DNA of 64,000 nt from Escherichia coli (lineage in GTDB: Bacteria > Pseudomonadota > Gammaproteobacteria > Enterobacterales > Enterobacteriaceae), in NCBI RefSeq assembly GCF_003991155.1, contig NZ_CP031293.1. One strand, written 5' to 3'. Shown here one piece after another: positions 3,671-12,572 of this stretch (its first letter is position 1; every line of letters starts with the position of its first letter). The notes below the pieces were generated by a model. The model saw nothing but the letters and a program-made list of their open reading frames with translations. It was not told where the DNA came from and searched no databases. The position numbers and the translations under genes are program-made.

Positions 3671-4005
3671 TGGTAAGCCGATACGTACCCGATATGGGCG
3701 ATCTGATTTGGGTTGATTTTGACCCGACAAAAGGTAGCGAGCAAGCCGGACATCGTCCGGCTGTTGTCCTCAGTCCGTTCATGTACAACAACAAAACAGG
3801 TATGTGTCTGTGTGTTCCTTGTACAACGCAATCAAAAGGATATCCGTTTGAAGTTGTTCTATCCGGTCAGGAACGTGATGGCGTAGCGTTAGCTGATCAG
3901 GTAAAAAGTATCGCCTGGCGGGCAAGAGGAGCAACGAAGAAAGGAACAGTTGCCCCAGAGGAATTACAACTCATTAAAGCCAAAATTAACGTGCTGATTG
4001 GGTAG
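3670..4005 (+). CDS. mazF: endoribonuclease toxin MazF
   Basis: 111 aa PemK/MazF family; start overlaps mazE stop (TAATG). Confidence 0.95.
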   Translation: MVSRYVPDMGDLIWVDFDPTKGSEQAGHRPAVVLSPFMYNNKTGMCLCVPCTTQSKGYPFEVVLSGQERDGVALADQVKSIAWRARGATKKGTVAPEELQLIKAKINVLIG

Positions 4006-4076
4006 GTGTTACTAACTCACTTCTATTCTGGTCACAGGTTTCCACCTGACGGACCCGCAATTTTCAGGACAATTCA

Positions 4077-4868
4077 ATGAATCAAATCGACCGTTTGCTC
4101 ACCATCATGCAGCGCCTGCGCGACCCGGAAAACGGCTGCCCGTGGGATAAAGAGCAGACATTTGCCACCATTGCGCCTTACACCCTTGAAGAAACCTACG
4201 AGGTGCTGGACGCCATCGCCCGTGAAGATTTTGACGATCTGCGCGGTGAACTGGGCGATCTGCTGTTCCAGGTGGTGTTTTACGCGCAAATGGCTCAGGA
4301 AGAAGGGCGCTTTGACTTTAATGATATTTGCGCCGCGATTAGCGATAAATTAGAGCGTCGCCATCCGCATGTTTTTGCTGACAGTTCTGCCGAAAACAGT
4401 AGTGAAGTGCTCGCCCGTTGGGAGCAAATCAAAACCGAAGAACGCGCGCAGAAAGCACAGCATTCGGCGCTGGATGATATTCCTCGTAGTTTACCGGCTT
4501 TAATGCGTGCGCAAAAAATCCAGAAACGTTGCGCCAACGTTGGCTTCGACTGGACGACGCTTGGTCCGGTAGTCGATAAAGTCTACGAAGAGATCGACGA
4601 GGTGATGTACGAGGCGCAGCAGGCTGTTGTCGACCAGGCTAAACTGGAGGAGGAAATGGGTGACCTGCTGTTTGCCACGGTCAATCTGGCTCGTCATTTA
4701 GGGACAAAAGCGGAAATCGCATTGCAAAAAGCGAACGAAAAATTCGAGCGTCGTTTTCGCGAAGTGGAGCGTATTGTTGCCGCGCGTGGACTGGAAATGA
4801 CAGGTGTTGACCTCGAAACAATGGAAGAAGTCTGGCAACAGGTAAAACGGCAGGAAATTGATCTCTAA
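4077..4868 (+). CDS. mazG: nucleoside triphosphate pyrophosphohydrolase MazG
   Basis: 263 aa, two MazG-type EExxE-containing repeats. Confidence 0.93.
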   Translation: MNQIDRLLTIMQRLRDPENGCPWDKEQTFATIAPYTLEETYEVLDAIAREDFDDLRGELGDLLFQVVFYAQMAQEEGRFDFNDICAAISDKLERRHPHVFADSSAENSSEVLARWEQIKTEERAQKAQHSALDDIPRSLPALMRAQKIQKRCANVGFDWTTLGPVVDKVYEEIDEVMYEAQQAVVDQAKLEEEMGDLLFATVNLARHLGTKAEIALQKANEKFERRFREVERIVAARGLEMTGVDLETMEEVWQQVKRQEIDL

Positions 4869-5080
4869 GGGAATTACGCGGTCAAGCGCCATTTGTGTCA
4901 TTTTTTAAATGACAAGCGCTTGATTTGCGTCAAAAACATTTACCCCAAAGGGGCTATTTTCTCACTCCTGATTTCAATAGTGCGCTGGCGAAGAGGAGGG
5001 ATAATGAAAGTTTGTGGCACAGGTCATGTTCGGGTATACTGCTTTCCCGTCCTGGTTATTCCATCGTCTTTTCAACCTAA

Positions 5081-6733
<1,653 letters not shown>

Positions 6734-6751
6734 GAAAAAAGTTAGAACGGC

Positions 6752-6780
6752 AACGCGTACCCTGGGTACGCGTTGTTTGT
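6752..6780 (+). terminator. hairpin between pyrG and eno (partial terminator / processing site)
   Basis: AACGCGTAC-cctgg-GTACGCGTT perfect 9-bp stem followed by GTTTGT. Confidence 0.45.
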
Positions 6781-6804
6781 CTGGAGTTTCAGTTTAACTA
6801 GTGA

Positions 6805-8118
<1,314 letters not shown>

Positions 8119-8137
8119 GTCTGACTTTATCTGATTT

Positions 8138-8169
8138 AAAAATGCCAGCCTTCGGGCTGGCATTTTTTA
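8138..8169. terminator. bidirectional intrinsic terminator shared by eno (+) and the convergent TPM gene (-)
   Basis: AAAAA TGCCAGCC ttcg GGCTGGCA TTTTTT; A-run on one side and T-run on the other. Confidence 0.8.
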
Positions 8170-8177
8170 TGGTTGAG

Positions 8178-9050
8178 TTACCAGCGACCGGACGCGCCGC
8201 CACCGCCAGAAGAACCGCCCCCGCCGCTAAATCCGCCGCCACTTGAGCCGCCACCGGAACCGCTGTTGTCTGAATGATAACTTCTACCAGATGCTTTTTT
8301 CTGAAGTACACATAAACAGGTAAAGACCATAATGGTGGTGAAAGTAAAAAAGAAGAAAAATACAGCAATGGAAAAAGTTTTATCGGAGAACAGGAATAAA
8401 TCTAAAAGATAGATTGCTGAAATACAGACACTGCTTTTACATGCGCGACAAAAATTACTGCCTTGATGAAAAAACCAGAAAGGGAAGAACATCACTGCAA
8501 ATACCCAAAAAATAGCAAAGTAATAATGATCACTGGAAGACGCTGATTCAATTTCTGAAGGATTAGCCGGATATTGGTGTTGTGAAGTGAGTTGGTTATT
8601 CAAAGCGTTTATAGCTAGCTCTAATCCCTGAGCTAATTTTTGTTGTTTAAATGCGGGTATCATGTTGCTACGGATGATATCTCCAGCCAGAGCATCGGTT
8701 ACCTTTTCTTCCAGCCCATAACCTACCTGGATGCGGACAGTGCGGTCCGACCAGGCAACAATGATCAGTATCCCATCATTGCGTTTGGCATCTCCTAAAC
8801 GCCAATTGTTAAAAACCCTTGTAGCATATTGTTCAATAGAATCGTCTCCGGTGGATGGCACTATTAATACAGCGACCTGTGCCCGTGTTTTTTGTGTAAT
8901 ATCCTGCAGCTGTTGTGTTAGTGATTGTTGTTCAGACGTGCTTAAGGTACCAGTAATATCGGTCACCTGTTGGCGCAGCTCCGGCACTGCAATTTGCTGG
9001 GTAAGCCCAGGAAGGCACCATAAAGTAAGTAGAAAAAAGATTAAGCGCAT
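8178..9050 (-). CDS. TPM-domain (YgcG-like) membrane protein, paralog C; ATG start at 9050 chosen over GTG at 9059
   Basis: Signal peptide, TPM/DUF477-like domain ([29 protein letters not shown]...), hydrophobic segment, C-terminal [25 protein letters not shown]. Confidence 0.8.
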
Positions 9051-9055
9051 AATGA

Positions 9056-10204
9056 TCACCAGCGTCCGGATGAACCGCCGCCTCCTGAAGAACCGCCACC
9101 ACCGCGGAAAGAATTTCTCGACGAAGAGCGAGAATGAGCATTACGATTCCCCGTTTTCCTGTTGCTTTTTTCTCCTGACCCCAGTTTAAGATTGCCAGTA
9201 AATTTGGCCACAATGATCAGCAGAACGATGCCAGCAATGGTTATTGGGCCGATAAAATGATCAATTAACCCAATAATTGTTGAGATGAATGCAATATCTT
9301 TATTACTGGCGAACACCAGGCACCATCCCACAACAATTATCAGCATCACGACAAACAATGAATTTCGTCCTGATTCAGGAAATTGCTGGGTCTTCTTTTG
9401 TTTTTTCACTTTAGTGTTTTTATTTTTGGGGGCCAGCATCATAGGAAATGCGCGGCACATATTAAAAACTACCGCGAGACGCTGCCAGCAGGTTGTTGCT
9501 AACAATAAACTAAAACAAACGATCGACACCCGCCGAATGATGACATCATCCTGAAAGAAGAAAAACCAGACCATAGGGGTAATCATCGATATCATCCATA
9601 TGCCAGGCCCAGGACGGCTGGTAAATCGCCAGAGGACAACGATGGCAACGATCATCAGCAGTGTCCAGGCAAGACATGGCAGCGAACGTTGTGGATTAGC
9701 AAACAGATGATTGGCTAAAGCATCCAAAGGGCTAAGGTTCGCTTTGATATGGGTAAACTGTGCGATGCTTTCAATTCCGCCCGTTAATCCAGCAAAGAGA
9801 TTGCTTTTTTCGAATTCTGGCTGCATATGGTAACGAACAATTTGCGCAGCTTGTTCTGGCGGCAACATCTGTTCCAGTCCATGTCCAATCTTCATTGACG
9901 CCAGCCCTTCCGGCCATACGACGAGAATTAAGATACCTTCGCCATATCGCTTCTCTCCAACGGGTTTCCAGTGATATAACCCGTATCTCTGCGAGGCTGC
10001 AAGTTTAATGTTTTTGCCCCCTGTAGTCGGCGTAACCAACACGGCCACCTGGAAGTGGTTTTGCTGCTCGAGAGTCTGTAATTGTTGATTTAAAGCAGTT
10101 TGTTCTTCTGTCGTTAATGTCCCGGTTAAGTCAGTTACTGAAGGCAATTGTTCAGCGAATACCTGAAAACCGCATAGCATCAGAAGTAAGAGAAAAATAC
10201 GCAT
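9056..10204 (-). CDS. TPM-domain membrane protein, paralog B, with extended polytopic membrane region
   Basis: 382 aa; signal peptide, TPM domain ([23 protein letters not shown]...), about 200 aa hydrophobic region, C-terminal [15 protein letters not shown]; RBS AAGGAA. Confidence 0.8.
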
Positions 10205-10218
10205 ATCAATTCCTTTTG

Positions 10219-11112
10219 TTACCAGCGTCCGGAAGCGCCACCGCCACCAGATGAACCGCCACCACCGCGGAAATTGTCATTGTCGAATGAAGAGGATGAC
10301 GATGACGAATAGTGGGAGGAAGAATTACTTCTTGTATGGCGTGATGGCTGGTTGGTATTACGCATCGAATCCCGAACCTTTTTGCCGAAGGGAGTAAAAG
10401 CGATGGCGACAGCCAGGAACGGTGTGGCGAAGCAGAGTAATGTTGCGAGCACTCCCCAGCTTCCGCTGAAACCTGCTATAGGTAAAACAAAGGCCAGTAC
10501 AATAGCTGCGAAGCAAATCAGTCCCAGCGTTTTGATATATCCTCTGGCAGAAATAAACGTCAGTATTATCGCCCAGACTAACAAAGCCCACCAACCGCTA
10601 AAGGGCAAAGGGTGATCGGTCGGTGTTATCGTTGCTGAATTATTCCCCGTCAGGCGACTTTCAATATCGTTGATCCCCTTTTGTAAACCACCAGCCAGGT
10701 CGCCTTTTTTAAATGCCGGAATAATACTGTTGCGAATAATTTTCCCGGACTGTGCATCCGTAATAATACCTTCCAGTCCGTAACCGATTTCAATACGCAC
10801 GGTATGATCCTGCCAGGCGACTAACAGTAGAACGCCATCATCGCGGTCTTTATCACCCGGTTTCCAGCTATCGAATACCCGCGTTGCGTACTGCTCGATG
10901 GTTTCATCGCCTGTTGTATCAACCACTAACACGACCAACTGTGCGTGGTTTTTTTGCGTCAGGGCTTTAATCTGGTTGGTCAGGGTGTTTACTTCGCTGT
11001 TTGTTAATGTGCCGGTTAAGTCATTCACATACTTGGGGGATTCAGGTACTGGAATTTGTGTGGCAAACACAGATGAACAGAAGAAAGCCATAAGGAAGAT
11101 AAAATTTCGCAT
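10219..11112 (-). CDS. TPM-domain membrane protein, paralog A; start at internal ATG (MRNFIFLMAFF signal peptide)
   Basis: TPM domain ([29 protein letters not shown]...), TM segments, Ser-rich linker, C-terminal [15 protein letters not shown]; 13 bp downstream of lemA stop. Confidence 0.8.
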   Translation of the reverse strand: MRNFIFLMAFFCSSVFATQIPVPESPKYVNDLTGTLTNSEVNTLTNQIKALTQKNHAQLVVLVVDTTGDETIEQYATRVFDSWKPGDKDRDDGVLLLVAWQDHTVRIEIGYGLEGIITDAQSGKIIRNSIIPAFKKGDLAGGLQKGINDIESRLTGNNSATITPTDHPLPFSGWWALLVWAIILTFISARGYIKTLGLICFAAIVLAFVLPIAGFSGSWGVLATLLCFATPFLAVAIAFTPFGKKVRDSMRNTNQPSRHTRSNSSSHYSSSSSSSFDNDNFRGGGGSSGGGGASGRW

Positions 11113-11125
11113 AGAACTTCCCCGC

Positions 11126-11728
11126 TTAATGCGCATTAGCATTCTGGCTAAAATCTATTGTTGGGGCTTTACTTACTGCGGTGACATCATCCGGCAAATA
11201 ATTTTTCTTTGGTGTGTAATCCATGACCTTTGCGGTTAATACAGCGGGGAATTTGCGGATAGTGACATTATATTGTTCAATGGCTTTAATATATCTTCCT
11301 CGCGCAACGGCAATTCTATTTTCACTTCCTTCGAGCTGTACCATTAAGTTTTGATAGAGTTCCTGAGCTTTTAACTCAGGGTAACGTTCACTAATTATCG
11401 TTAACTGACCGAGAGTGCGAGACACCTGCGCCTGGGCTTGTTGCCAGGCTTGTAATTTTTGCGCATCTCCCGGAGCTTGCTGAAGATCGCTACTGGCGCG
11501 ATTAGCCTGGCTACGTGCCAATGTTACGGCTTCCAGTACCTCTTGTTCATGGCTGGAATAACCTTTAATACTGGCGACAAGATTAGGAATAAGATCGGCG
11601 CGACGTTGATATTGATTCAATACCTCAGACCAGGAGGCGTTAACCTGCTCATCATAGGTTTGAATATCGTTATATCCACAGCCTGATAAATTGACAATAA
11701 ATATAATTACGATGAATATCCTGAGCAT
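11126..11728 (-). CDS. lemA: LemA-family lipoprotein/membrane protein
   Basis: 200 aa; N-terminal lipobox-like NLSGC; LemA-family sequence pattern; first gene of the lemA-TPM operon. Confidence 0.8.
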   Translation of the reverse strand: MLRIFIVIIFIVNLSGCGYNDIQTYDEQVNASWSEVLNQYQRRADLIPNLVASIKGYSSHEQEVLEAVTLARSQANRASSDLQQAPGDAQKLQAWQQAQAQVSRTLGQLTIISERYPELKAQELYQNLMVQLEGSENRIAVARGRYIKAIEQYNVTIRKFPAVLTAKVMDYTPKKNYLPDDVTAVSKAPTIDFSQNANAH

Positions 11729-11900
11729 GTCTATGTCCCTTTTAATTAATTCCTTAAAACATAATACGCCGCTTCATTTTATTCTTTATGATCTCATCCA
11801 CTTTTTGCCTTAAACCTGCCTGTAACAGAATGTTAATAAGACATGATTGTTGTGGCAGGATCTGCAATAATTAACAATTATCCACTTCACAGAGAATGCT

Positions 11901-12572
11901 ATGCAGTACCCGATTAACGAGATGTTCCAGACCCTGCAAGGTGAGGGTTACTTTACCGGCGTCCCCGCCATTTTTATTCGTTTACAGGGATGCCCGGTTG
12001 GCTGTGCCTGGTGCGACACCAAACACACCTGGGAAAAGCTTGAGGATCGGGAAGTTTCCCTTTTCAGCATTCTGGCGAAGACCAAAGAGAGTGATAAGTG
12101 GGGGGCTGCGAGCAGTGAAGATTTGCTGGCTGTCATTGGTCGCCAGGGATACACCGCGCGGCATGTGGTGATTACGGGTGGTGAGCCTTGCATTCATGAT
12201 TTGCTGCCACTGACTGACCTGCTCGAAAAGAACGGTTTTAGCTGCCAGATCGAAACCAGTGGTACTCATGAAGTACGCTGCACACCGAATACCTGGGTTA
12301 CCGTATCGCCAAAGCTGAATATGCGCGGCGGCTATGAAGTGTTGTCACAGGCACTGGAGCGAGCCAACGAAATCAAGCATCCAGTGGGACGCGTACGTGA
12401 TATCGAAGCACTGGATGAATTGCTTGCGACGCTGACCGATGATAAACCGCGAGTCATTGCACTTCAGCCAATTAGCCAGAAGGAAGATGCTACGCGTTTA
12501 TGTATCGATACCTGCATAGCGCGCAACTGGCGTTTGTCGATGCAGACACATAAATATTTGAATATTGCCTGA
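11901..12572 (+). CDS. queE: 7-carboxy-7-deazaguanine synthase (radical SAM)
   Basis: 223 aa; Cys motif CPVGCAWCDT; divergent from lemA operon. Confidence 0.93.
   Translation: MQYPINEMFQTLQGEGYFTGVPAIFIRLQGCPVGCAWCDTKHTWEKLEDREVSLFSILAKTKESDKWGAASSEDLLAVIGRQGYTARHVVITGGEPCIHDLLPLTDLLEKNGFSCQIETSGTHEVRCTPNTWVTVSPKLNMRGGYEVLSQALERANEIKHPVGRVRDIEALDELLATLTDDKPRVIALQPISQKEDATRLCIDTCIARNWRLSMQTHKYLNIA

Follow-up and report, generated by a model that had tools for sequence, protein, structure and literature searches.

The three direct repeats with which the TPM/YgcG genes of the E. coli lemA operon end are very likely the coding sequence of a single conserved family peptide, with recombination between them a rare by-product. 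A striking DNA repeat would then reflect a conserved protein motif, with a role in recombination that is real but marginal.

The lemA operon between eno and queE carries three TPM/YgcG genes

We analysed a 64-kb stretch of E. coli DNA (the window), positions 8100-11800 of which are 100% identical to E. coli strain 2016C-3878. Within it, a lemA operon with three TPM/YgcG genes, C, B and A, sits on the minus strand between eno (6820-8118) and queE (11901-12572), both of which lie on the plus strand. The first gene of the operon, lemA (11126..11728, minus strand), is annotated as 'LemA family protein' in 2016C-3878, and its product matches Pfam LemA (PF04011) with an E-value of 1e-48 and a score of 165.4 bits against a cut-off of 26.2. 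The products of the other three genes all match Pfam TPM_phosphatase above the gathering cut-off of 22.1 bits. These are gene C (10219..11112, minus strand; 297 aa from the RefSeq-equivalent start; 141.3 bits, E 2e-41), gene B (9056..10204, minus strand; 382 aa; 76.6 bits, E 2e-21) and gene A (8178..9050, minus strand; 290 aa from the ATG at 9050; 134.9 bits, E 2e-39). The open reading frame of gene C reaches further upstream, to an ATG at 11142, and that of gene A begins at a GTG at 9059 (ORF span 8178-9059). Gene A is the orthologue of K-12 ygcG across its 3' 700 nt.

All three proteins are predicted from their sequences to have the signal peptide and the C-terminal hydrophobic membrane block of the TPM/YgcG family; in hydropathy windows, an N-terminal segment is accompanied by three segments in A and C and by four or more in B. 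The open reading frame of gene C is intact in the window, yet RefSeq marks the gene as a pseudogene, and we point out as a practical matter that this label is a mislabel. A promoter and terminator scan of the region contributed nothing.

The gene ends form short, imperfect direct repeats

A repeat search returned a single repeat family with three direct copies of 53 nt, which code on the minus strand and start 878 and 1163 nt apart. When copy B (9058..9110) is taken as the reference, copy A (8180..8232) is 77% identical to it and copy C (10221..10273) is 87% identical. All three are the 3' ends of the minus-strand TPM open reading frames, and each encoded tail, which runs from F-[RS] to [AS]-SGRW, directly precedes the stop codon. 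A first-pass annotation of this DNA had described three repeats in the same orientation that end the TPM genes, and in this respect the search and the spacings bear it out. Its further description of the tails as near-identical holds for the peptides, which match at 15-16 of 18 residues between copies, but not for the DNA. Pairwise alignment of the 3' ends, proposed there as a check, gives the overall identity of 77-87% and shows that extended exact identity is short, the longest exact words common to two tails being 11 nt for A/B, 11 nt for A/C and 21 nt for B/C. With the tails anchored on the right, 80-84% of nucleotides match across 45 nt and 70-80% across 60 nt.

The 21-nt block common to the B and C tails, GAACCGCCACCACCGCGGAAA, lies at 9090..9110 in the B tail and, in identical form, at 10253..10273 in the C tail. 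The crossover of the O157 deletion described below falls within the first 16 nt of this block. A pattern of glycine codons (GGN four times, 6 nt, GGN four times) occurs at exactly three sites in the 64-kb window, all of them in the tails, as against 0 in 100 shuffles, and chance low complexity was rejected on this count.

The tail is a conserved family motif

The C-terminal motif F-x-GGGG-x-x-GGGG-A/S-S-G-x-W-COOH terminates nearly every membrane-anchored protein of the TPM/YgcG family. The tails of A, B and C all carry a glycine-rich extension ending in GGGGxxGGGGASGxW. An exhaustive HMMER search yielded 22,788 family representatives, and tails were read in 142 of the best 150 matches, these distant relatives being representatives of 50%-identity clusters. 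Among the 142, the last residue is Trp in 129 and the last 20 residues are Gly/Ser-rich in 130, with the consensus FSGGGGSFGGGGASGSW. In an alignment of 99 sequences, 5 of the 11 invariant protein columns fall in the tail (G285, G286, G290, G292 and W297) and the remaining invariant columns include residues of the TPM-domain core; the tail is conserved as strongly as that core.

Outside the tail, the A, B and C proteins are only 35-38% identical, and we therefore regard the three as old paralogues. A Klebsiella genome carries, at the same eno-queE site, lemA, an orthologue of C and a B-like gene. Both of its TPM-type genes end in the tail, which the B-like gene has kept even though it has lost the TPM domain. 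Across the E. coli alleles of the three genes, variation is synonymous only at 16 tail codons and changes the residue at 2. Recent duplication was rejected as the origin of the repeats, which are a conserved C-terminal motif of the family.

[quoted passage not shown] No account of these repeats turned up in literature searches on ygcG, on TPM domains together with LemA, or on the motif itself, and comparison with the named families of NCBIfam gave only sub-threshold similarities, to Psb32 and MamQ.

The shared peptide and DNA homogenisation

We used a codon-sampling simulation to estimate the DNA similarity that is expected, out of 54 nt, from the shared peptide alone. The A/B and A/C tails are identical at 40/54 and 41/54 nt, compared with simulated values of 34-38 ± 2.8 (P 0.02-0.18), and the shared peptide largely accounts for their similarity. 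The B/C tails, identical at 45/54 nt with the 21-nt run, are above the peptide-only expectation (P 0.0001-0.016), and some homogenisation of the DNA has probably acted on this pair in addition to selection. In the lineage of the window, the C tail has TTTCCGC at a site where other lineages have TTTTAGC; this 2-nt patch matches B and extends the B/C common block from 16 to 21 nt, and it may be the trace of a minor conversion event. Elsewhere, conversion or recent duplication can dominate, judging from a pair of tandem paralogues in a distant genome whose last 69 nucleotides are identical.

The tails might on this evidence owe their likeness mainly to concerted evolution, by gene conversion or by recent duplication of the 3' ends, rather than to selection on the peptide. 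The excess identity and exact run of the B/C pair, the lineage-specific change that turns the C tail B-like and the identical ends of the distant tandem paralogues all speak for this. We nevertheless consider it unlikely, given that the identity of the A/B and A/C pairs falls inside the range expected from the peptide, and that about half of the identical residues (5-9 of the 15-16 shared by two paralogue tails) are encoded by different codons. Furthermore, unlinked family members across bacteria end in the same peptide, and allelic variation in the tail is almost wholly synonymous. Selection on a shared peptide is the reading that we adopt in what follows.

The eno-queE spacer has four structural haplotypes

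When 5426 complete E. coli genomes were sorted by junction-specific searches, the eno-queE spacer was found to exist as four structural haplotypes. The K-12 type, with a single TPM gene (ygcG) and the small gene yqcG, was present in 3918 genomes, and the three-gene array with B in 1104, of which 1102 were near full length. A form in which lemA-C is followed by an unrelated 120-aa gene was present in 340 genomes, and a lemA-C-A form without B in 10.

By blastn, K-12 is 95.6% identical to the window over 8002-8873 and is again 92.7% identical from 11696 onward. The segment in between, 8874..11695, is replaced in K-12-type genomes by 265 nt of different sequence, and neither end of it is in a tail: the breakpoint at 8873 is inside the TPM domain of A and that at 11696 is at the 5' end of lemA. 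The 265 nt hold most of yqcG as well as the codons for residues 1-62 of YgcG, a stretch with ~40% identity to A, B or C. This K-12-specific sequence has no match in the window and was not found in any three-copy genome in a distant-mode search. Tail junctions were rejected for the K-12 one-copy form on the basis of the mapped breakpoints, both of which are outside the tails.

In the 340-genome form, B and A have been replaced by the unrelated gene, and homology runs to the stop codon of C. A homologue of the replacement gene lies downstream of the B-like gene in Klebsiella; when the lemA-C-hyp120 intergenic sequence was compared with Klebsiella, the spacers were too diverged to show whether a tail-mediated loss of B had produced this form.

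Gene B has been deleted through the B and C tails

The 10 genomes without B, among about 1,110 that bear the array, comprise nine O157:H7-like genomes and 2017-02-2CC; contraction thus amounts to < 1%. The sequence absent from them is 1163 bp long and corresponds to 9106..10268 in the window, this being one of several equivalent in-register notations. An identical junction, in which the C body is followed by the B tail and then by gene A, is present in the nine O157:H7 genomes, with the crossover inside the 16-nt block GAACCGCCACCACCGC common to the B and C tails. In AR-0428, for example, the sequence read from the start of gene A is specific to the B tail as far as ...CTGAAG, continues through GAACCGCCACCACCGC and is thereafter specific to C. 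Comparison of AR-0428 with strain 136, a three-copy O157 sister strain, showed that the left flank is identical at 2539/2539 positions and that the right flank differs by 1 SNP and 1 indel beyond the tail. The A, C and LemA proteins of the two strains do not differ.

The same in-register loss of 1163 bp has occurred in strain 2017-02-2CC, whose alleles are 4-7% distant from those of O157. Its closest alleles (98.9% identical, e.g. EC42405) are in genomes that have all three genes and 1163 bp more, and the B/C common block of this lineage is only about 11 nt. Since 2017-02-2CC is unrelated to the O157:H7 set, we conclude that B has been deleted independently at least twice. Both the O157 and the 2017-02-2CC cases carry the marks of short-homology deletion, namely a junction within a shared block, the loss of one repeat copy along with the spacer, and parental flanks.

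When the sequence of the window is joined across 9106..10268, an in-frame gene with a C body and a B tail results. The O157 gene C has an in-frame stop after codon 224, so that the C/B fusion of O157 is part of a remnant that is not translated. A minority of O157:H7 genomes carry the 1163-bp deletion as a diagnostic feature, and with it a chimeric C/B reading frame.

The junction alone gives no direction, and one could also read it the other way round, with a two-copy lemA-C-A arrangement as the ancestral state and B inserted later between two tails. We regard this as extremely improbable. The two-copy genomes are nested among three-copy ones, with flanks that are identical or nearly so, and their tail is a C/B chimera. 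Moreover, identity between B and its neighbours is 35%, and the Klebsiella genome has a B-like gene at the same site. Deletion of B from a three-gene array is the direction that we accept.

Synthetic sequences for the predicted A/B, A/C and B-duplication junctions gave 0 hits covering the junction in the 5426 genomes. No array expansion was evident from a duplication junction in the same 5426 genomes, and at most two genomes had two places for gene B. These results bear on the proposal of the first-pass annotation that unequal crossing-over at the tails expands and contracts the array, and that this gave rise to the one- versus three-copy difference between strains. Copy number does indeed vary across E. 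coli genomes and is not uniform, and the junctions of the two B-deleted lineages are inside the B/C tail repeat. Recombination of the array through the tails is accordingly upheld for contraction, seen as the loss of B in 10 genomes, but not for expansion; breakpoints fall within the repeats in those 10 genomes, but not in the K-12-type one-copy genomes. As an explanation of the difference between one and three copies, the proposal fails. The K-12 breakpoints are off the tails and the first 62 residues of YgcG are diverged from all three window proteins, in the second one-copy form an unrelated gene has taken the place of B and A, and tail-mediated loss in 10 genomes compares with about 4260 one-copy genomes. 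Crossing-over at the tails is therefore very unlikely to have shaped the array in this general way, and we retain the view that the repeats encode a conserved peptide and have only occasionally recombined.

A predicted strand at the end of the tail

In an AF2 model of the gene C product, residues 21-150 have a pLDDT of 93-98, and a Foldseek search with this model matched 5anp_A (E 2.5e-11, TMt 0.88), which has the TPM alpha/beta fold. With the TPM domain present, the last ~10 residues are modelled as a beta-strand with a pLDDT of ~96; when the domain is left out, the tail has a pLDDT of ~51 and forms no strand, in an alignment that is shallower (40 versus 99 sequences). The confidence of the strand in the presence of the TPM domain is a lead and not a result, as the comparison mixes these two alignment depths.

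It is conceivable, although we think it rather doubtful, that the GGGGxxGGGGASGxW-COOH tail is a structured docking strand that binds the TPM domain, its own or that of a partner, and is not a floppy linker. Persistence of the tail in the Klebsiella paralogue that lacks the TPM domain may be cited alongside this reading. By hydropathy, the tail follows three hydrophobic segments and a stretch rich in Lys and Arg, and the predicted topology therefore makes it cytoplasmic. Docking conflicts with this topology, under which the membrane would separate the cytoplasmic tail from a periplasmic TPM domain; if docking does occur, either the predicted topology or the assumption of binding in cis would be wrong. 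If the suggestion were true, tens of thousands of bacterial proteins would carry an uncharacterised C-terminal assembly or autoregulatory signal.

A model for the origin and recombination of the repeats

We envisage that the lemA operon carries three anciently diverged paralogues, C, B and A, each of which would consist of a signal peptide, a TPM domain, a variable transmembrane block, a Ser-rich linker and the tail. Gly (GGN) and Ser codons make up most of the motif, and strong purifying selection on it would leave ~65-75% of the tail nucleotides common to any two members, so that the conserved peptide would generate short imperfect direct repeats as a by-product. With perfect blocks of 11-21 nt, these repeats would be neither long nor continuous enough for RecA-dependent recombination to work efficiently. 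The best-matched pair, B/C, whose members are 1163 bp apart, would permit a rare in-register short-homology deletion that fuses the C body to the B tail and removes B. We infer that this deletion proceeds by slipped misalignment or by recombination of low efficiency.

The minimum perfect identity for efficient RecA-mediated recombination is usually quoted as ~23-27 bp. The longest perfect block in the tails, at 21 nt, falls short of this, and in the parents of the deletions the perfect B/C block was 16 nt in O157 and about 11 nt in the 2017-02-2CC lineage. Blocks below the usual RecA length fit both the rarity of the events and the finding that B/C is the sole pair to have recombined.

Comparison with known systems

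A, B and C belong to the TPM family (Pfam PF04536, Psb32-like/YgcG), sharing the TPM domain above threshold. Solved TPM domains are those of BA41 (5ANP), Rhom172_1776 (7TBR) and PG_0361 (2KW7), on which the gene C model superposes with target-normalised TM-scores of 0.77-0.90. The solved structures lack the transmembrane part and the tail; otherwise A, B and C show no essential difference from them. Three TPM paralogues in a row with lemA are one haplotype of this E. coli locus.

Classical studies of lacI deletions in E. coli reportedly found short-homology (slipped-misalignment) deletions between short direct repeats, and later work in this organism described RecA-independent deletion between repeats. 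The loss of B resembles such short-homology deletions in that one repeat and 1163 bp in total are lost, the junction falls in a perfect block of 11-16 nt and the event is rare. It differs from the lacI type in that the repeats here are functional coding motifs of paralogous genes, and the product of deletion is therefore an in-frame chimeric gene. The locus also resembles contingency-type tandem arrays, with repeats in the same orientation at the ends of tandem genes. Contingency loci gain and lose copies at appreciable frequency, whereas at this locus there are 10 losses and no duplication junction, no expansion among the 1104 three-gene genomes, contraction in < 1% and perfect blocks that are below 23-27 bp.

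Structural haplotypes of the eno–queE spacer

Among complete E. coli genomes, the eno–queE spacer (window 8143–11695) occurs in four structural haplotypes. The K-12 form, yqcG-ygcG, is carried by 3918 genomes, and lemA-C-B-A, with the three minus-strand TPM/YgcG paralogues A, B and C downstream of lemA, by about 1104; lemA-C-hyp120 (the LD91-1 type) accounts for 340 and lemA-C-A for 10. Some 55 complete genomes are not assigned to any of the four, some of them with IS4 or IS1 insertions.

The 120-aa gene of LD91-1-type strains stands in place of B and A, and is homologous to a 130-aa Klebsiella sp. protein (positions 6721–7113 of that locus). The latter adjoins a B-like protein of 261 aa (5911–6696) from which most of the TPM domain has gone; it retains its signal peptide and membrane block, along with the exact tail, the Gly/Ser-rich motif that closes A, B and C.

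K-12 yqcG (window 11696–11761; K-12 locus 4965–5105), annotated there as 'cell envelope stress response protein', overlaps a stretch homologous to the lemA upstream region and its first ∼11 codons. Residues 11–41 of its product are 35% identical to the LemA N-terminus, and yqcG looks like the leftover of a deleted lemA.

Gene C and the Gly/Ser tail

In strain 2016C-3878, which is identical to the window over 8100–11800, RefSeq labels gene C (3700–4593 of its own locus) a pseudogene 'missing C-terminus' (window 10219–10545), despite an intact ORF of 297 aa. In O157, gene C is genuinely cut short, codon 224 being followed by an in-frame stop, and the label probably arose because this truncated version serves as the reference protein.

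AF2 predicts residues 288–296 of protein C, in the tail (window 10222–10250), as a beta-strand with high confidence if the model includes the TPM domain but not otherwise, the tail pLDDT being ∼96 with that domain and ∼51 without it. Such a predicted strand is at odds with a topology in which the tail is cytoplasmic and the TPM domain periplasmic. Tail length differs in steps of whole Gly/Ser units: five clusters of C orthologues end in a 10-residue sequence (not shown) that is one GGGGSS unit short, and O157 gene A has additional GGGSS units. These steps suggest slippage inside the tail itself.

Conserved ends and exchanged middles

Another short direct repeat, of 26 nt and 88% identity (window 10113–10138 and 11003–11028), codes in B and C for the conserved VTDLTGTL with which the TPM domain begins.

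Alleles of gene A have a mosaic structure. The window and O157 types share 8002–8259 at 95% and 8695–9105 at 84%, with unrelated transmembrane blocks between (8260–8694), and homology picks up again exactly at the start of the Gly/Ser tail. A distant bacterium (GCA_014727845.1) carries tandem TPM paralogues (798–1697 and 1723–2613 of its locus) whose terminal 69 nucleotides are identical and whose TPM-domain DNA is about 90% identical, with unrelated transmembrane blocks. This pair and the E. coli gene A alleles present one pattern, 'conserved ends, swapped middle'.
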